DNA of 33,614 nt from Patescibacteria group bacterium. GTDB taxonomy: Bacteria; Patescibacteriota; Patescibacteriia; XYB2-FULL-38-15. A model generated the notes under the pieces. It did no database searches and was not told the origin of the DNA. It worked only from the letters and a program-made list of their open reading frames with translations. Shown here piece after piece: positions 1,393 through 22,139 of the stretch (its first letter is position 1; every line of letters starts with the position of its first letter). The DNA lies in NCBI GenBank assembly GCA_018818855.1, contig JAHIRI010000076.1:1-33614 (forward strand), given 5' to 3'. The position numbers and the translations under genes are program-made.

Positions 1393-1465
1393 GACCCGGT
1401 AGCTCAGCTGGTAGAGCAACTGCCTTTTAAGCAGTGGGTCCTGGGTTCGAGCCCCAGCCGGGTCA
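1393..1465 (+). tRNA. tRNA-Lys (anticodon UUU)
   Basis: 73-nt cloverleaf. Acceptor GACCCGG/CCGGGTC, D arm GCTC/GAGC, anticodon stem ACTGC/GCAGT with loop CTTTTAA, T arm CTGGG-TTCGAGC-CCCAG, discriminator A. CCA is not encoded. Confidence 0.93.
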
Positions 1466-1489
1466 TTTTTTATTTGTTTAATTATTTTC

Positions 1490-1517
1490 AAAACCATCAA
1501 GTCGATGGTTTTTTGTT
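1490..1517 (+). terminator. Rho-independent terminator after tRNA-Lys
   Basis: Stem aaaaccatc (1490-1498) / gatggtttt (1504-1512), followed by a T-rich tail. Confidence 0.55.
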
Positions 1518-1521
1518 TATC

Positions 1522-1550
1522 TTGACAAAATCTATATATTATCCTAAGAT
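1522..1550 (+). promoter_or_regulatory. Sigma70-type promoter of the GGDEF gene
   Basis: TTGACA (1522-1527), 17-nt spacer, TAAGAT (1545-1550). GAGGAGG SD at 1573-1579, 5 nt before the ATG at 1585. Confidence 0.6.
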
Positions 1551-1584
1551 TAAAAGTTGCAAAAGACAACACGAGGAGGTAATC

Positions 1585-2217
1585 ATGTCGTCTTCGCTGG
1601 AAAACCTTTCGGCCGCGCAACTGCGGATTGCTCTTGCCGCGGCGTACGCGGGGATTGCGGCGCAGGAAGTGGAGATCAGAAGTCTCCGGGGAGCGATGGC
1701 TCTGCTTTGGGACGAAGGAGAACAATACAAGACCGAGGGGCGGACAGATCACCTGACGGGAGCACTGAACCGCAAAGGTGTCGAGATTGCTCTTGCCGAG
1801 GAAATGTCCTTCGCTCAACGCTTCGAGTCCCCTCTCAGCGTGATCGCGATTGATGTCGATCAGTTCAAAGAAATCAACGACACGTACGGCCATCCCGCCG
1901 GAGACGCCGTCCTGCAGAAACTCGTCAAGCGTTTTCGCAAGGTTCTTCGCCCCTACGACCTGATCGGACGGATAGGAGGAGATGAATTTATCATTATCCT
2001 TCGGGGAGCGACTCCTGAAAACGCGGCTTTGGTCGCCCAACGTCTCTGCGCGGCCGTAGCGCTAAATTCCTTTTCTTTCGACGGATTTACTTTTCCGGTG
2101 ACGATCAGCCTAGGCGTAGATGAGGCAGGGGGGAAGCAGCCCCTCGCGGCGGCGGACAAGGCACTCTACGAGGCCAAGCGCGGAGGCCGCAATCGCGTAG
2201 TCACAAACAAGCGCTAG
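1585..2217 (+). CDS. Diguanylate cyclase: GGDEF domain with a short N-terminal helical segment, no sensor domain
   Basis: Internal ATG of ORF 1474-2217, preceded by a strong SD. Motifs DHLTGALNRKG, IDVDQFKEINDTYGHPAGD, RIGGDEFIIIL, ADKALYEAKRGGRNRV. An RxxD (RPYD) lies 5 residues before GGDEF (I-site). Markedly G+C-rich compared with its flanks. Confidence 0.9.
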   Translation: MSSSLENLSAAQLRIALAAAYAGIAAQEVEIRSLRGAMALLWDEGEQYKTEGRTDHLTGALNRKGVEIALAEEMSFAQRFESPLSVIAIDVDQFKEINDTYGHPAGDAVLQKLVKRFRKVLRPYDLIGRIGGDEFIIILRGATPENAALVAQRLCAAVALNSFSFDGFTFPVTISLGVDEAGGKQPLAAADKALYEAKRGGRNRVVTNKR

Positions 2218-5932: not shown

Positions 5933-7132
5933 CTAATTTTTAATAGGTGACATCTTACGCAATCTTTCCACGATGCCGGGAAAAACCTTAAGTAAGCGGC
6001 GCATTTCTTCCTCAGTATTATTTTTTCCCAAAGTGACGCGCAAACTTCCATGGGAAACAATAGGAGAAATCCCCATAGCCGAAAGAACGTGCGACGGTTC
6101 AAGCGACCCCGAGGAACAAGCCGAACCAGTGGAGACGGCGATTCCCTCCATATCAAGCATTAGTAAAATACTTTCCCCTTCAACATTTTTAAAACAAAAA
6201 CTCGCGTTTCCGGGGATGCGTTTTTCCGGATCACCGGAGAAAATCGCGTCGGGAATTTTCTTTAATATTTCTCGCATCAATTTATCGCGTAATTTTTTTA
6301 TTTTCAAATTTTGGCTTTTGACCTTTGCTTTTTGATTCAATAATTCCACCGCCTTACCAAGTCCGACTATGCCGGCAACATTTTCTGTGCCCGAACGAAT
6401 TCCCCGTTCCTGATGACCGCCAAAAATTATTGGATAAATAGGCGTTCCTTCCCGCAGAAAGAGAATGCCGGTTCCTTTTGGCCCGTAAATTTTATGCGCC
6501 GAAAGCGACAACATATCAACCCCCAAAAAATCGACCCGACAATCGCAGAAATTTGCCGCCTGAACCGCGTCGGTATGAAAATGAATTTTTTCCTGTTTAC
6601 CTCGGCTGGCGTTAATTTTTTTAATTAATTCTCCAATTTCCCGGATGGGTTGGATTGTTCCTATCTCATTGTTAACATACATTATAGACACAAGAACCGT
6701 TTCCGGCCGAATAGTTTTCTTAACGTCCCCCACCCTCACTAAACCACTTTTTGTAACTGGTAAATATGTCACCTCAACTTCTTCCTTTTTCAATTCCCGA
6801 AAAACTTCAAAGACGGCCGGATGTTCAATCGCAGAAGTAATTACATGAATTTTTCTTTTTGGATCAAGCGCTCTCGCTCGCCGGACAAATCCTAAAATTG
6901 CAAGATTGTTGCTCTCCGTCGCGCCAGAAGTAAAAATAATTTCCTTCGGGTCGCATGACAAAAATTTTGCTACCTCTTCCCGCGCCGCCTCAACTCCTGC
7001 CCGCGCCGCCTGCCCAAAACTATGTAGCGACGATGCGTTCCCAAAATCATTTTTCAGATACGCCAACATCACCCGCAAAACCTCGGGGTCTATCGGAGTA
7101 GTTGCTGAATGGTCAAAATATATTCGCTTCAT
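5933..7132 (-). CDS. iscS: Cysteine desulfurase (NifS/IscS class)
   Basis: 399 aa. PLP-lysine context SLSAHKIYGPKG, catalytic loop STGSACSSGSLEPSHVL. Adjacent to the iscU and nfu genes. Confidence 0.92.
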   Translation of the reverse strand: MKRIYFDHSATTPIDPEVLRVMLAYLKNDFGNASSLHSFGQAARAGVEAAREEVAKFLSCDPKEIIFTSGATESNNLAILGFVRRARALDPKRKIHVITSAIEHPAVFEVFRELKKEEVEVTYLPVTKSGLVRVGDVKKTIRPETVLVSIMYVNNEIGTIQPIREIGELIKKINASRGKQEKIHFHTDAVQAANFCDCRVDFLGVDMLSLSAHKIYGPKGTGILFLREGTPIYPIIFGGHQERGIRSGTENVAGIVGLGKAVELLNQKAKVKSQNLKIKKLRDKLMREILKKIPDAIFSGDPEKRIPGNASFCFKNVEGESILLMLDMEGIAVSTGSACSSGSLEPSHVLSAMGISPIVSHGSLRVTLGKNNTEEEMRRLLKVFPGIVERLRKMSPIKN

Positions 7133-7138
7133 AATATA

Positions 7139-7363
7139 TTAAACTGCCAACACTTCTTTTACGCCCCGAACTTTTGCTTTCAGGGCTCTCGCAATCCCCT
7201 GCTCAAGAGTCATCGCCGCCATGGGACAATGGTGGCAAGCGCCGACAAGTTTTACTTTCACCACCCCGGATTTTTCATCAACATCAACTAATTCAACATC
7301 GCCGCCATCGGCCTGGAGCGACGGCCTTATTTCGTCTAAAATTTTTTTAACTTTATCTTTCAT
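7139..7363 (-). CDS. NifU C-terminal (Nfu-type) Fe-S carrier domain protein
   Basis: 74 aa. Contains [11 protein letters not shown]...[13 protein letters not shown] (CxxC of the Nfu domain). Confidence 0.85.
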
Positions 7364-7373
7364 AAAATAAAAA

Positions 7374-7769
7374 TTATTTATTTAATTTTTTAATTGCATC
7401 ATGCAACGCTTCGATCGCAAGCACTGAACAATGAAGTTTAATCGGTGGCAAACCGCCGAGCGATTCCGCGATATTTGCTTTTGTCACTTTAGCCGCAACT
7501 TGGAGCGGTTGGCCTTTCACTAAATCCGTGATCATGGACGATGTCGCAATAGCCGCCGCGCAACCCAAGGTTTCGAATTTGATGTCCTTAACATAATCAA
7601 TCATTTTTCCGCCAATTTTTTTCTTATCAATTTTCAAATACAACTTCATCATGTCGCCGCAAAGAGGATTTCCCGCTTCTCCCACCGCAGTAGGATTTTT
7701 TATCACCCCTTGATTATGCGGGTTTTTAAAATGATCAATAACTTCTTTTGAATATATAATTTGACTCAT
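7374..7769 (-). CDS. iscU: IscU/NifU N-terminal-type Fe-S scaffold
   Basis: 131 aa. Three conserved Cys contexts: [27 protein letters not shown]. Confidence 0.9.
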
Positions 7770-7771
7770 AA

Positions 7772-7811
7772 AACTTACAAACTTAATAACTTAATAACTT
7801 ACGAACTAAAA
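7772..7811. repeat. Five tandem 8-nt units (aacttaca aacttaat aacttaat aacttacg aactaaaa) filling the spacer between the 180-aa gene and iscU
   Basis: Read directly from the sequence. Same architecture and same terminal unit as 8753-8792. Confidence 0.75.
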
Positions 7812-8354
7812 TTAAGCTGCTTCCTCTTTTTCTTCCATTCTTGGCCTCAAATTATCCAACTGCAAGCGAAAATTTCTAAGGTCATTCGCTCCGCTTTTAT
7901 CACTTCTCATCAAAATATCTTCATTTTCTTCCAAAAATTCTTCTATCTCCTTTGCGATAGTTTCGCGAGTCTCGGGATCTTTTTCAACCTCTAGACGATC
8001 AAACATTTTTTCTGCCGTAGTAAAAACCGCTACTCTCTTTTTCCCTTCAATAATCAATTCTTTTGGCAACTCTCCTTCGCCTTCTTCGGATGGAACAACT
8101 TCCTCGAGCGTTTCTCCAAAAGCGCGATTAAGTTGTCTATAATATTTTTCTACGCCCCTACTCCCAACTTCCATTTCTAACTTGTCCAAGAGCGGTTTAA
8201 TATGCCTGGCCAATTCTACGCGCAAGTCAGGATTTTTCGCGTCCTTAAGTTGTTTGAGCAATACTTCAATTTCTTCTTCCCGCATGCCTATTTCTCTTTC
8301 TTTATCTGCCATCTCCCAAGCCTCTGGCGGAAATAATTCTCCAAGATTTTTCAT
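7812..8354 (-). CDS. Hypothetical acidic, Glu-rich helical protein
   Basis: 180-aa ORF in the operon, with a 10-nt gap to the upstream gene. Shares an ELAR-x-I motif region with the 86-aa neighbour. Ends in -EEAA. Confidence 0.6.
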   Translation of the reverse strand: MKNLGELFPPEAWEMADKEREIGMREEEIEVLLKQLKDAKNPDLRVELARHIKPLLDKLEMEVGSRGVEKYYRQLNRAFGETLEEVVPSEEGEGELPKELIIEGKKRVAVFTTAEKMFDRLEVEKDPETRETIAKEIEEFLEENEDILMRSDKSGANDLRNFRLQLDNLRPRMEEKEEAA

Positions 8355-17500: not shown

Positions 17501-18343
17501 TTATTTTGTTTTTAAATAATCTGCCAACGCTTCCTCCCACTTTCGGATTGGCGGCAATTTTGTATTTATCAGTATTGAATATTTTGGTCTTTTGGCAGGC
17601 CTTGGAAATCTATCCGCGCCTACCGGTATTAACTTAACACTTTTGCCGGATAATTCAAATGTTTTCTTGGCCCAGCCATACCAAGTGCAAGAACCCTCAT
17701 TTGTCACATGATAAATACCAAATGGTTTTTTCCATTCAATAATCTCTCTTGTTCGATGCGCCAAATCGCAAACATAAGTCGGAGAACTCACTTCTTCATC
17801 GACTAACTCCAAACAATCTTTCTCTTCGGCACATTTTAACATTACATCAACAAAACTTTTTTTCGCTCCAACACTCTGCGCCTGTTTTCCAAAAAGCCGC
17901 GAAGTTCTAATTAAATAATATTTTTTATTTTTAATTTGTTGTTCGCCTAACAATTTTGAACTGGCATACAAGCTCTGCGGATTTGGCATGGCGTCTTCCT
18001 TGTACCCGTCAATTTCTTTTCCATCAAAAATATAATCGGTACCATAGTGAACAAAAATTGCGTCAACGGCTTCAGCTGCCTCGGATAAATTCAAAACGGC
18101 ATATCCATTAACTTGATCAGCAAAATCCTTTTCCCCTTCTTCAATTTTGTCCACTGCGTTGTACGCCGCGGCATTAACAATAATTTCCGGCTTCAAATCG
18201 GAGATTCTTTTGCTGACCTCTTCTTTTTTTGTAATATCAATTTCTTCCTTATCCCAGGTTGTCACTTCGTAGCCATTCTCCGCAAATTCCCGCGCCAATT
18301 CCTGGCCCAGCATTCCCTTTGATCCAATGATTAGAACCTTCAT
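17501..18343 (-). CDS. rmlD: dTDP-4-dehydrorhamnose reductase
   Basis: Start at MKVLIIGSKGMLGQEL. Contains YASSKLLGEQ (YxxxK) and RTSRLFG. Confidence 0.85.
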   Translation of the reverse strand: MKVLIIGSKGMLGQELAREFAENGYEVTTWDKEEIDITKKEEVSKRISDLKPEIIVNAAAYNAVDKIEEGEKDFADQVNGYAVLNLSEAAEAVDAIFVHYGTDYIFDGKEIDGYKEDAMPNPQSLYASSKLLGEQQIKNKKYYLIRTSRLFGKQAQSVGAKKSFVDVMLKCAEEKDCLELVDEEVSSPTYVCDLAHRTREIIEWKKPFGIYHVTNEGSCTWYGWAKKTFELSGKSVKLIPVGADRFPRPAKRPKYSILINTKLPPIRKWEEALADYLKTK

Positions 18344-18422
18344 AAATAAGCTAAATTTAAACATTTACTACTCTATTTACTTTACTAAAAACACTGCTTT
18401 TCGTCAATCCTTGTCCATAAAT

Positions 18423-18466
18423 AAAAAAACACCGTTCTCCACAGCGGGTGCTGCAAAAAACGGTGT
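18423..18466 (-). terminator. Terminator of the G+C-rich two-gene cassette
   Basis: On the minus strand, stem acaccgtt / aacggtgt (18459-18466 / 18429-18436) with an inner mini-hairpin, followed by a 7-T run (complement of 18423-18429). Confidence 0.6.
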
Positions 18467-18492
18467 GGTTGTCCTCCTTGTTCTTCTCCGGA

Positions 18493-18723
18493 TCAGATCG
18501 ACGTGTGTTCCACCGGCTTGGCCGATCTGGCCTTTTGCGCCTCCTCGGCCATCATGACACGCCGCTCATCGGCAGAGAGAATATCCCACTCCCTCACGAG
18601 CCGATCTTCCTCCCGCTGAGTTTCGGCGGAAAGAATCGCTCGCGCGATCTCCCTCTTCTTCCTCTGGATCGTGGGGAGATCTCTCTCCACCACTGCTCTC
18701 CTCTTCTTGCGTCTCCTCGCCAT
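18493..18723 (-). CDS. Hypothetical highly charged 76-aa protein (RRRKKRR N-terminus), cassette gene B
   Basis: AGGAGG (18735-18730) lies 6 nt upstream of the ATG. High G+C at third codon positions. No family recognised. Confidence 0.6.
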   Translation of the reverse strand: MARRRKKRRAVVERDLPTIQRKKREIARAILSAETQREEDRLVREWDILSADERRVMMAEEAQKARSAKPVEHTSI

Positions 18724-18744
18724 AGCTCGCCTCCTATGATCGAT

Positions 18745-19218
18745 CTACAGCCCGGCCTTGCACAGAGCCGCGAGCGCCATACCGTCCTCAGTCTCGTAAA
18801 TGAAGTCGGCAAGCCCCATCCAATTGCCGCCATCTTCGGCATGGAGCCGAACAACGACCACGCCGACCTTGCCGGTCATGCGCGCCGAGTCGGGCCGGAA
18901 GTAGCCGATGGGCTCGACCGCGGGCACTTCGCCCTTGGAGACCGAGCTGCGATCAGCCTCGAGCACTTCCTTGCCGGCGCCCGGACGCCACGGCCGCACC
19001 ACCTTGATCTTCGTGCCGCAAACCTTGAGCGTCACCGCGCCGATGACCTTGTCCGGATCGCCTCCTTCCTGGAGCACGAGCGGCTGGATCCACTTCTTGC
19101 CGCCTTCGGGGCCGACCTCGCCGACCCGGACGGCGAAGAACTTGCCGTCGGCCCGTTCGAGCTGCCTCGTCTCGGGATTCCACTGCCACCCACCACCAAG
19201 TTCCTGCACTTCCGGCAT
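18745..19218 (-). CDS. Hypothetical 157-aa protein, cassette gene A; possible single-domain relative of NDP-hexose 2,3-dehydratase / Nudix-like fold
   Basis: Purine-rich SD-like tract (19235-19221). Third codon positions are almost all G/C. The motif GWQWNPETRQLERADGKFFAVRVGEV...KKWIQPLVLQ resembles the conserved core of the Hexose_dehydrat family, judged from memory and not searched. Confidence 0.6.
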   Translation of the reverse strand: MPEVQELGGGWQWNPETRQLERADGKFFAVRVGEVGPEGGKKWIQPLVLQEGGDPDKVIGAVTLKVCGTKIKVVRPWRPGAGKEVLEADRSSVSKGEVPAVEPIGYFRPDSARMTGKVGVVVVRLHAEDGGNWMGLADFIYETEDGMALAALCKAGL

Positions 19219-19267
19219 CTCTTCCCTTCCTTCCCTGAAGCCCCCTTGGCTTCTTGTTGATATTGAT

Positions 19268-19296
19268 AGGTTAAATTACAAAATGAAAAATGTCAA
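19268..19296 (-). promoter_or_regulatory. Candidate promoter of the G+C-rich cassette
   Basis: On the minus strand: TTGACA (19296-19291), 17-nt spacer, TAACCT (19273-19268). AT-rich and host-like in composition. Confidence 0.45.
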
Positions 19297-19300
19297 TATC

Positions 19301-19323
19301 AAAAAAGCGGCCTTTCCGGCCGC
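19301..19323 (-). terminator. Rho-independent terminator after the 69-aa ORF / fdtA unit
   Basis: The minus strand reads GCGGCC-GGAAA-GGCCGC followed by TTTTTT. Confidence 0.7.
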
Positions 19324-19341
19324 CTTTCTAAAATCAACTCT

Positions 19342-19551
19342 CTATTTTTTCTTTTTTTTCGCTTCTCTCTGTAATTCCACAATTAAACCCACTGCTTGTT
19401 GACCAAATTCCCTAATCAAGACTTTTTCGGCGTCCCGACCTTGCCTTCCGCCCCTCAAAATCATTCCCTTTAAACTTAAAACTCGATCTTGTATTTTTTG
19501 TTTTTCGTGCAAATCGTCCTGTATTCTTTCGAACCCCAAACCTTCTTCCAT
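19342..19551 (-). CDS. Hypothetical 69-aa protein with a poly-Lys C-terminus
   Basis: ORF with host-like composition, followed by a clean terminator. No recognisable domain. Confidence 0.35.
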   Translation of the reverse strand: MEEGLGFERIQDDLHEKQKIQDRVLSLKGMILRGGRQGRDAEKVLIREFGQQAVGLIVELQREAKKKKK

Positions 19552-21177: not shown

Positions 21178-21705
21178 TTATTTAAAATATTTTCTCACCA
21201 TCGCCCAAGCGGCCATGGTCTCGCCACCCCAGATTTCGTTACTTTCAATCATTTTATCAATCTCTTCCGGCGTCTTTAATAAAATCTCAATTTCTTCTGT
21301 TTCTTCTGGATGACTTTCCTCTTTTTTTAAATTTTTTACTAAAAAAACTCTTACTAATTCTTTTGAAAAACCTTGCGAAGAGGCAAACTCTCCAATAAAT
21401 TTCAAATCTCCCTGATAACCGGTTTCTTCTTCAAGTTCAGCTCGGGCTGCCCCCTCGGGAGTTTGTCCATCTTCAATACCACCCGCACAAAATTCTATAC
21501 CGTCCTTATCAAAAAGATAACGATATTGCCGCACCAGAATAATCCGCCCGTCGTCCAAAATTGGCACGACCATACTCCCGCCGGGATTATCAAAATAATA
21601 ATAATCCCCCTCTTTTCCGTTTGGCAATTGGAATTTATCGTGTTTATAAGTCCACCACGGATTTTTGTGCAAAATTTCTTCACTTAATTTTTTGTATCTT
21701 TTCAT
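21178..21705 (-). CDS. Nudix hydrolase
   Basis: 175 aa. Nudix box GGIEDGQTPEGAARAELEEETGY. Confidence 0.88.
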   Translation of the reverse strand: MKRYKKLSEEILHKNPWWTYKHDKFQLPNGKEGDYYYFDNPGGSMVVPILDDGRIILVRQYRYLFDKDGIEFCAGGIEDGQTPEGAARAELEEETGYQGDLKFIGEFASSQGFSKELVRVFLVKNLKKEESHPEETEEIEILLKTPEEIDKMIESNEIWGGETMAAWAMVRKYFK

Positions 21706-22139
21706 ATAATTTTATATTCAATTGTCTTCTCTGAAGATAGTGACTCGCCACTCAAGACAACCAAAGGAGAAAAATCATTTCCTGGGTTTCGTACTGCATG
21801 AGCAATTCCCGTTGGAACATAATACATCGTATATTTTTCTTTATCTCCGAGCGACATCTCTATTTTTTCTTTTCTTCCGGTTTTAGGATCTTCCAAATAA
21901 AGCTCCATCGGACCCATCGGGCAAAAAAATTCTCCTTTTGTAATGTGATAATGATTGCCGGCCACATCCCCGGGACCAAGGTAATTTAAATAAGCAAATT
22001 TGGGTGTAAACGATTCATCAATCTCTTCATCAGTCGGCCACAAAAAATTAAACCAACGATTGCCTTTGTTTGACCGTCTTCCACGAATCAACTCCCAATA
22101 TAAATCGTATTTTATAATTTTCAAATCTTGTTCGTTCAT
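21702..22139 (-). CDS. Cupin-fold protein, unknown specificity
   Basis: 145 aa. GNHYH...G...VPTGIAHAV pattern typical of cupins. ATGA overlaps with both neighbouring genes. Confidence 0.6.
   Translation of the reverse strand: MNEQDLKIIKYDLYWELIRGRRSNKGNRWFNFLWPTDEEIDESFTPKFAYLNYLGPGDVAGNHYHITKGEFFCPMGPMELYLEDPKTGRKEKIEMSLGDKEKYTMYYVPTGIAHAVRNPGNDFSPLVVLSGESLSSEKTIEYKII

Follow-up and report, generated by a model that had tools for sequence, protein, structure and literature searches.

We analyzed a 33,614-nucleotide stretch of DNA from a Patescibacteria group bacterium (GenBank assembly GCA_018818855.1, contig JAHIRI010000076.1; hereafter, the window), in which a cassette rich in guanine plus cytosine (G+C) is located on the minus strand (18423-19300) among deoxythymidine diphosphate (dTDP)-sugar genes of the rml cluster. 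The cassette contains two open reading frames (ORFs), coding for a 157-aa protein (gene A, 18745-19218) and a 76-aa protein (gene B, 18493-18723), both as described in a first-pass annotation of the window. That annotation viewed the unit as a two-component module acquired horizontally from a high-G+C, perhaps actinobacterial, donor. Comparison with related contigs does not bear this out. Instead, the unit is one of several interchangeable alleles at a fixed slot rather than a one-off foreign insertion. On balance, and with modest confidence, we favor an interpretation in which the cassette is one allele of a strain-variable accessory unit in a fixed slot of the dTDP-6-deoxyhexose locus and gene A is a dTDP-sugar binder.

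An exchangeable slot in the rml cluster

The usual gene order around the cassette is HIT-NUDIX-RmlB-FdtA-small ORF-[A]-RmlD-RmlA-PEGA-EPSP synthase-S41 peptidase. Genes of the A family were present inside the rml cluster in 22 Patescibacteria contigs (loci carry L numbers below), and all but one of these had the gene in the same slot. The exception, L016, belongs to a lineage with 58% G+C, in which the A gene lies between RmlD and RmlA and FdtA is missing. Junctions were alike in contigs of independent assemblies, including an 886-kb contig. Because 22 contigs from independent assemblies carry an A-family gene with these junctions, an assembly chimera, which the first-pass annotation had considered, is excluded.

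Exchange of alleles was evident from comparison of the window with L009. Over 6.3 kb (window positions 18786 down to 12486), the two share 95.7% nucleotide identity, with synonymous divergence (dS) of 0.05 in rmlA; identity is 78% in the segment comprising the small ORF, the promoter and the 5′-untranslated region (5′-UTR). They are unalignable only across positions ~18787-19204, the body of gene A, where the window has an allele of type I and L009 has a 38%-identical allele of type II. This comparison shows that genomes differing little elsewhere have exchanged alleles, the breakpoints falling at either end of the gene A coding sequence. Across loci, similarity of gene A to the window allele did not follow similarity of the flanking genes, and dS was 0.4-0.8 in gene A vs 1.3-2.4 in the flanks. 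The lower dS of gene A fits more recent coalescence through exchange, and codon bias could contribute.

Occupancy of the slot was assessed by an RmlD-anchored scan of metagenome contigs, unbiased as to gene A, followed by analysis with hidden Markov models (HMMs) and tblastn. Where RmlD was at least about 74% identical, the slot held type I, type II (187-195 aa, 30-38% identical to type I), a block with an ADP-ribose pyrophosphatase (ADPRase)-like gene, or nothing. The ADPRase-like block, found in L019, codes for a G+C-rich 237-aa protein (E=0.003-0.018) with a degenerate Nudix box. The same slot of L043 and L027, in which RmlD is 65% identical, has a G+C-rich 210-aa protein designated type III. 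The four G+C-rich cargo types all have a Nudix fold of the nucleoside-diphosphate (NDP)-sugar/ADP-ribose kind. A search for empty sites in relatives detected one, L018, in which the terminator of the small ORF abuts the rmlD promoter and composition is host-like. Since an empty site exists, the cassette is a true accessory unit.

The slot is a general accessory hotspot. In addition to their G+C-rich genes, L043 (2802-3878) and L027 (1165-2664) have an MNT nucleotidyltransferase and an HD-domain protein, with a HepT RNase in L027 only; HD proteins are also found in the slots of L008 and L011. A second G+C-rich ORF (L019, 1743-2297; 184 aa, no Pfam match) follows the ADPRase-like gene and might either stand in functionally for gene B or be a partner unrelated to it. 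In L028, the slot content is moderately G+C-rich.

In several respects, this arrangement resembles known systems of gene replacement. O-antigen and capsule switching occurs by recombination in conserved flanks, and such loci are classically A+T-rich. Common to these systems and the locus described here are a fixed slot between conserved sugar-nucleotide genes, divergent alleles swapped among close relatives, and atypical composition. However, the exchanged unit here is a single small gene, with or without gene B, rather than a multi-gene glycosyltransferase block; its breakpoints lie at coding-sequence edges, and its composition is shifted toward G+C. The cassette is also reminiscent of integron cassettes and genomic islets, being a compact unit, promoter-to-terminator or ORF-sized, that is present or absent at a fixed site. 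Unlike integron cassettes, it has its own promoter and ends in a hairpin followed by a T-run, with no GTTRRRY core and no integrase nearby.

Because strains that are ~96% identical elsewhere differ at this position, the slot is a candidate determinant of strain-level surface or metabolic diversity. Surface chemistry of Patescibacteria probably governs host attachment, and the A family sits in a core deoxy-sugar locus.

Origin of the G+C-rich composition

The sharp break in composition reported in the first-pass annotation was confirmed. G+C content was 0.61-0.68 in 300-nt windows over positions 18601-19200 vs 0.414 in the whole window. In 50-nt steps, it was 54-74% over 18500-19250, and values at the edges were 0.24 (18350-18399) and 0.22 (19250-19299). 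Gene A has a G+C content of 0.66, with values at the first, second and third codon positions (GC1, GC2 and GC3) of 0.71, 0.45 and 0.82, respectively; gene B has a G+C content of 0.59 and GC3 of 0.73. The 31 other long ORFs in the window have GC3 of 0.394 +/- 0.052, which places gene A ~8 standard deviations above them. Across the family, all alleles of gene A have G+C contents of 0.62-0.69 and GC3 of 0.72-0.92 against backgrounds of 0.40-0.46. Even in the 58% G+C genome of L016, GC3 of the A gene is 0.91 vs 0.71-0.74 in its neighbors. Gene B and additional cargo in L003 and L004 are also G+C-rich, whereas the HD genes are not.

We modeled evolution of GC3 with a two-state likelihood approach on third codon positions. 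For type I, GC3 was 0.95 at the root with an equilibrium of 0.62, stationarity being rejected (p=6e-5) and a host-like equilibrium of 0.40 also rejected (p=0.025). For type II, the root value was 0.90 and the equilibrium 0.79, with a host-like 0.40 rejected at p=0.0012. Flanking genes had root values of 0.29-0.46 and equilibria of 0.36-0.48 (stationarity: rmlA, p=0.09; fdtA, p=0.55; rmlD, p=0.026). A simpler polarization of changes by majority rule (44 GC-to-AT vs 0 AT-to-GC) was judged to be biased when one state is rare, and the likelihood model was used instead. The G+C-rich ancestry proposed below is drawn from this model. The results are suggestive of extremely G+C-rich ancestors of the alleles (GC3 ~0.90-0.95), with type I losing G+C under a substitution process that is not simply that of the host. 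The richness in G+C may thus be inherited from very G+C-rich ancestral alleles and kept by a force other than host mutation bias; candidates would be repeated import from a G+C-rich pool, and G+C-favoring selection or gene conversion at a recombination hotspot.

An alternative explanation, which is essentially that of the first-pass annotation, is that the cassette is a recent foreign two-component module that came from a high-G+C donor, such as an actinobacterial host of an episymbiont, landed by chance among the rml genes and is ameliorating. Its G+C content, GC3 and even GC1 of 0.71 do resemble a high-G+C proteome, and the high ancestral GC3 of type I and its ongoing loss of G+C are what amelioration would produce. 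In addition, the characterized enzymes of the most similar family, PF03559, are actinobacterial (PMC8987622), L003 has a longer G+C-rich block with an N-terminal fragment of PilB/GspE, and the empty site L018 is consistent with insertion. However, an occupied slot is also seen in 21 related contigs, in which divergence of the flanking genes reaches dS above 1, and three to four deeply divergent allele types occupy this one slot. Also against a donor of this kind, exhaustive profile search of 1.84 billion representatives yielded 37 relatives, and the named ones that were looked up came from metagenome-assembled genomes (MAGs) of Patescibacteria, plus one “Deltaproteobacteria” MAG. Moreover, the promoter and 5′-UTR are host-like and common to types I and II, the allele still stands out as G+C-rich where the genome itself has 58% G+C, and for type II the likelihood model rejects a host-like equilibrium. 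We therefore consider recent import from such a donor unlikely. The first-pass annotation would have taken presence of a cassette of the same composition at this site in all relatives as evidence against acquisition; most relatives do have such a cassette there.

It is also conceivable, but in our view improbable, that the high G+C content is actively maintained, either by G+C-biased conversion or by selection at the nucleic acid level (e.g., for mRNA stability, together with the 5′ hairpin described below), and that genes A and B form a strain-variable module at a hotspot for nucleotide-sugar sensing or conflict. If so, the locus would be an unusually clean natural example of locally raised G+C equilibrium in a bacterial genome. 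Should biased gene conversion or nucleic-acid-level selection be responsible, it would offer a tractable natural test case.

Two further G+C-rich segments were observed next to A genes. In L016, ~570 nt with 55-72% G+C follow the A gene (within 7001-8049), with no called gene and no convincing ORF. An extended block follows the type I gene A in L003 (6706-8132) and L004 (1829-2974). It comprises a 232-aa ORF with no Pfam match, a 64-aa ORF (L004 only), a gene B homolog of subtype B2, and a piece of a PilB/GspE-type ATPase (L003 only), the latter being a 121-aa N-terminal fragment with 61% G+C. This block suggests that the site was once occupied by a larger segment of a G+C-rich cellular genome.

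Gene A: fold, family and possible function

Gene A codes for a genuine protein. The ratio of nonsynonymous to synonymous divergence (dN/dS) was 0.11-0.43 across eight type I alleles, and values for gene A of 0.2-0.4 compare with 0.05-0.1 in neighboring genes. Variability of type I alleles at codon positions 1, 2 and 3 was 0.17, 0.12 and 0.33. The first-pass annotation had noted an antisense 270-aa ORF (18448-19260) and allowed that it might be the conserved frame; the corresponding ratio of polymorphisms (pN/pS) was 1.20 in that frame vs 0.33 in the sense frame, and the antisense ORF is interrupted in L008 and L011. This frame stays open because it is codon-antiparallel to gene A, which has high GC3, and for annotation purposes the long antisense ORF is a composition artefact. 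A structured non-coding RNA was likewise rejected, as there was no relevant Rfam match, folding was not stronger than in shuffled sequences (z=+0.48), and variability had a protein-type codon-position pattern.

The A family as a whole consists of single-domain proteins of ~157-215 aa. A word-indexed search found 13 close homologs (73-100% identical), the exhaustive search mentioned above added depth with its 37 relatives of ~170-200 aa, and a profile search of a 5.8-billion-sequence set yielded 59. Each of these carries a “hypothetical” annotation and lacks a Pfam domain. A search of genome contigs with an A-family profile returned one locus, within the set already known, and no relatives of type I or type II were detected in IMG/VR viral contigs. 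NCBIfam, PHROGs and PADLOC gave no match for gene A, gene B or the antisense ORF, other than a single non-significant PHROGs match (E=0.038), and a literature search found no description of the A family or its locus. Types I and II thus have no Pfam, NCBIfam or PHROGs model, while their fold can now be assigned with confidence. Conserved motifs include W..R.DGKFF, GGW.QP..EE, LE.(K/D)(P/R)SS.SKGE, N/D..R..G and DG(R/M).LAAL.K.GL, and conservation is strongest at R22, D24, E51, S92, S94, K95, R113, G116 and D145.

The relationship with NDP-hexose 2,3-dehydratases of the EvaA/TylX3 type (PF03559), which the first-pass annotation had proposed from motifs, was supported by several analyses. PF03559 matched residues 11-52 of gene A on model positions 30-71, below threshold (14.7 bits vs a cutoff of 25; E=0.02), and sub-threshold matches occurred in 5 of 36 family members. 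An AlphaFold model built on a 57-sequence alignment had a predicted local distance difference test score (pLDDT) of 88.2 and a predicted template modeling score of 0.78; it was used in place of a model from a shallow 13-sequence alignment, for which pLDDT was 47. The top 50 Protein Data Bank (PDB) matches of this model in Foldseek were all Nudix proteins, 15 of them at E<=1e-3. The best E-values belonged to NDP-sugar hydrolases, including ADPRase 5i8u (8e-5), GDP-mannose hydrolase 3o69 and NDP-sugar hydrolase 5c7t, and the best TM-score to EvaA (4j7g_B; TMq 0.64, E=2.1e-3, root mean square deviation 4.3). Profile searches of PDB sequences gave only non-significant matches, namely EvaA at E=0.79 with one family profile and nothing relevant with another.

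Type III provides a bridge between gene A and EvaA. A bona fide single PF03559 domain, it scores 74-75 bits against that model, can be aligned with either half of EvaA (E=5.8e-8 and 8.8e-3), and is matched by the A-family profile through shared motifs (hhalign E=1.2e-4 over 88 columns). We conclude that gene A adopts a Nudix fold and represents a reduced form, with one domain only, related to the EvaA/PF03559 domain, in an unnamed branch nearly confined to Patescibacteria. With EvaA, it shares the N-terminal motifs W..(d)..tG...R.dGkFF...W.QP, a ...G..l...P..SS.S..E region, and genomic association with RmlB, which makes the substrate of EvaA-type enzymes. As pointed out in the first-pass annotation, however, it is only about one third as long, a single domain compared with the two tandem domains in the 471 aa of EvaA. 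EvaA-type enzymes occur in actinobacterial antibiotic clusters, whereas the A family is a hypervariable, accessory component of core-sugar loci in Patescibacteria.

Nudix hydrolases of NDP-sugars bind nucleoside-diphosphate sugars and act as homodimers. Those found by Foldseek (ADPRase, YffH/NudK and a Bdellovibrio NDP-sugar hydrolase; E-values of 8e-5 to 1e-3) are similar to gene A in single-domain size, but differ in catalytic features. The core of the Nudix box (GX5EX7REUXEEXGU), E-U-x-E-E-x-G-U, was present in strict or relaxed form in 0 of 93 family sequences scanned, and no match to PF00293 was found in any of 36 A-family members. As a positive control, the canonical NUDIX gene of the cluster (21178-21705) has ELEEETGY and matches PF00293 at 55.8 bits. 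Gene A is not a diverged duplicate of this adjacent gene, with which it has no detectable sequence relation (hhalign probability 0.2%).

EvaA comprises two Nudix-fold domains; catalysis takes place in pocket A, pocket B is a vestigial dTDP-sugar-binding site, and activity depends on both E139 and E190 (PMC8987622). By residue count in the alignment, the glutamate of the EPGN motif of type III corresponds to Glu139. There, the sequence reads R75-P-W-R-P-G80 in gene A and R-K-A-K-G in type II, and acidic residues are lacking within +/-2 positions. The counterpart of Glu190, assigned by motif analogy only (SEEGGRF / KDGGRF / DSARM / NPQRI), would be D110 in type I and Asn in type II. Given the missing acid at the Glu139 position and the pocket architecture of EvaA, gene A would appear to resemble a stand-alone, catalytically remodeled sugar-nucleotide-binding domain more than a dehydratase.

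Types I and II, which have lost the Nudix box and Glu139 and kept invariant polar residues, most likely bind the dTDP-sugar made by the neighboring genes, i.e., the RmlB product or a downstream 6-deoxyhexose, and gene A is probably a homodimer, as are other NDP-sugar Nudix proteins. It may serve as a non-dehydratase accessory factor (a binder, sensor or enzyme of altered chemistry), in which case surface-sugar metabolism would differ between strains. Non-catalytic Nudix-fold sensors, such as the Nudix domain of NrtR and NUDT9-H of TRPM2, have kept the fold without hydrolase motifs and bind ADP-ribose-type ligands. They offer a functional model that we favor for types I and II by general analogy rather than by shown homology, with the difference that these domains are fused to a DNA-binding or channel domain, whereas gene A stands alone or, at most, with a separate gene B.

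Several observations weigh against this interpretation. Ligand binding, dimerization and any role of gene B are inferred, the dTDP-sugar-binding role from fold, homology, loss of catalytic motifs with retention of polar residues, and the four Nudix cargo types at the rml cluster. The E139 mapping is a chained alignment with an hhalign probability of only 55%, although there is still no acidic residue within +/-2. Catalytic residues can migrate, and the invariant acidic residues E51, E87 and D145 make enzymatic activity conceivable. The slot also holds non-sugar genes of host-like composition (a HepT/MNT toxin-antitoxin pair and HD proteins), and because unrelated genes collect there, position in the slot is by itself weak evidence of function. 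Finally, the GC3 model is crude (two states on a midpoint-rooted neighbor-joining tree, with neither rate heterogeneity nor recombination taken into account), and its rejection of a host-like equilibrium for type I is only marginal.

If gene A were instead an active mini 2,3-dehydratase, its homodimer could mimic two-domain EvaA and convert the RmlB product to dTDP-3,4-diketo-2,6-dideoxyhexose, giving strains with the cassette a 2,6-dideoxy sugar. Homology and fold similarity to EvaA, the invariant acidic and basic residues of the family, RmlB only ~0.8 kb away, and a type III protein in the same slot that retains E139 and passes PF03559 would all agree with this possibility. On the other hand, types I and II have RPWRPG and R-K-A-K-G, respectively, in place of a glutamate that is essential in EvaA (PMC8987622), the E190 counterpart, again by motif analogy only, is Asp or Asn, gene A falls below the PF03559 cutoff, and the cassette has neither a 3-ketoreductase nor any other deoxysugar tailoring gene. 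Dehydratase activity of this kind is, in our opinion, quite doubtful.

Gene B, cassette signals and neighboring genes

Gene B codes for a basic protein (isoelectric point 10.8) with 4 close homologs. As the first-pass annotation had stated, it belongs to no recognizable family in Pfam, NCBIfam, PHROGs, PADLOC or PDB. Two subtypes were identified, B1 (window, L009, L023) and B2 (L017, L022, L040, L072, L003/L004). BLASTP found no match between them; they are linked by hhalign (E=1.1e-4), by a match of the B1 HMM to B2 (4e-4) and by 17 invariant positions. When the two were combined in one profile, searches of PDB and Pfam returned nothing beyond chance WD40-like matches. Gene B always lies downstream of gene A, mostly after a 21-nt spacer; in L040, the exception, B2 precedes rmlD and the A region is off the contig. 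The 21-nt spacer and its Shine-Dalgarno sequence also occur in L009, and a 21-nt gap precedes B2 in L017.

That genes A and B form a fixed pair, as the first-pass annotation had supposed, did not hold. About half of the cassettes lack gene B (L001, L006, L010, L014, L015, L021, L041), and all four pairings of A types (A1, type I; A2, type II) and B types were found: A1+B1 in the window, A2+B1 in L009 and L023, A2+B2 in L017 and L022, and A1+B2 in L072 and L003. Given this absence and free pairing, gene B is an optional, modular partner and not half of an obligate two-component system. It is possibly nucleic-acid-binding. In L017, a frameshift affects the type II gene A close to its C-terminus (7001-7648 and 7485-7589) and leaves the conserved ...STDGRSLAALAKAGL end in another frame; this may be a pseudogene or a MAG assembly error, and B2 downstream is intact.

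The least probable of the explanations considered is that the slot is a general accessory or defense hotspot whose position in the rml cluster is incidental, and that A, with or without B, would be a conflict module, whether toxin-antitoxin-like, anti-phage, or a “sponge” for nucleotide sugars or ADP-ribose. In favor of this, the slot is hypervariable and sometimes empty, it has received a HepT/MNT pair and HD-domain proteins, alleles are swapped between near-identical genomes, gene A evolves under a higher dN/dS than its neighbors, and gene B is tiny, basic and modular in its pairing, but there is no PADLOC match, no significant PHROGs match and no occurrence in viral contigs, the G+C-rich cargo types are without exception Nudix-fold proteins of the NDP-sugar/ADP-ribose kind, A occurs so often without B, and the L016 lineage has the A family in the rml cluster at another position (RmlD-RmlA). 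It is from this different position within the same cluster that a functional link between the A family and the rml genes is argued.

Read directly from the window, the cassette consists of a promoter, a 5′-UTR hairpin, gene A, gene B and a terminator, in agreement with the complete minus-strand unit of the first-pass annotation. The promoter has a -35 element TTGACA (19296-19291) and, after a 17-nt spacer, a -10-like TAACCT (19273-19268). A consensus-based promoter scan made no call here because the -10 element fits the consensus at only 3 of 6 positions. Of the 16 type I-III cassettes listed, all except L043 keep the TTGACA element in position, and the empty site L018 does not have it. The promoter is followed by a stem-loop detected in an inverted-repeat search (19237-19253; RNA GAAGCC-AAGGG-GGCUUC) that lies directly 5′ of the purine-rich Shine-Dalgarno sequence of gene A, GGGAAGGAAGGGAAG (19221-19235). 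A tract of the AAGGAAGGAG type is kept before the ATG of gene A in related loci. Hairpins were compared fold by fold, column-wise covariation having been dropped since MAFFT shifted the register between variants. A hairpin folds at this position in all 16 type I, II and III cassettes, with at least 4 distinct stem sequences and one compensatory change (A-U to C-G) between two type III loci. TTGACA and a 5′-UTR whose hairpin abuts the Shine-Dalgarno sequence are thus features that types I and II have in common.

Genes A and B are in one reading frame, separated by TAG and 21 nt, and this spacer contains the Shine-Dalgarno sequence of gene B, AGGAGG (18730-18735), 6 nt before its start. The terminator (18423-18466), identified by a terminator scan and as an inverted repeat, is an imperfect 17-pair hairpin (18466-18429) followed by a T-run, and the same terminal hairpin closes cassettes without gene B, such as L001.

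On one side, the cassette borders on the T-run that ends the small-ORF terminator (19301-19330; hairpin GCGGCC-GGAAA-GGCCGC), and on the other it is bounded by TATTTATGG...TTGACG of the rmlD promoter. This promoter-like site (TTGACG-17-TAAAGT, 18379-18407), found by promoter scan, aligns in L018 with the sequence after the small-ORF terminator. Both ends of the cassette have the form of a hairpin and T-run followed by (A)TTGAC, and this short similarity could mediate cassette loss. Consistent with the first-pass annotation, end comparison and inverted-repeat search revealed no terminal repeats beyond the T-run and no target-site duplication, and no integrase, transposase or recombinase was found among called genes within +/-6 kb at 12 loci, the genes there being housekeeping and sugar genes. 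Rfam searches of the whole window and of 18300-19400 gave no match at gathering thresholds or E<=1, except for one chance small-RNA hit outside ORFs.

Two minor sequence features were observed at the cassette. An imperfect 24-nt inverted repeat (19254-19305, 75% complementary; TTGTTGATATTGATAGG... / ...GTCAATATCAAAAA) surrounds the promoter; its right arm, ATCAATATCAA, is kept in most cassettes and its left arm is not, and it may be an operator or a coincidence. An AAGGAGG motif at 18470-18480 (minus strand CAAGGAGGACA), just 5′ of the terminal hairpin, is shared by the window, L001 and L009. It is not followed by a start codon, and may belong to the terminator structure or be what is left of an ORF since lost.

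The small ORF that separates FdtA from the slot (19342-19551, minus strand) is conserved, codes for 69 aa with a Lys-rich tail, and has a terminator of its own. Every related locus has it, the empty L018 among them. It matches no family and diverges more than the neighboring genes. Further upstream, a 145-aa ORF (21702-22139, minus strand) lies next to NUDIX, between that gene and the upstream 135-aa ORF. Like FdtA, it has weak matches to Cupin_2 and Polysacc_synt_C, and it may be an extra FdtA-like cupin of this genome; in L001, L012 and L014, HIT abuts NUDIX.

A second compositionally foreign gene was detected near the start of the window. It codes for a GGDEF diguanylate cyclase (1474-2217, plus strand; PF00990, 130 bits) and is located directly downstream of a tRNA gene (1393-1465, plus strand). 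With a G+C content of 0.53 and GC3 of 0.59, ~3.8 standard deviations above other ORFs of the window, it was possibly acquired at the tRNA site.

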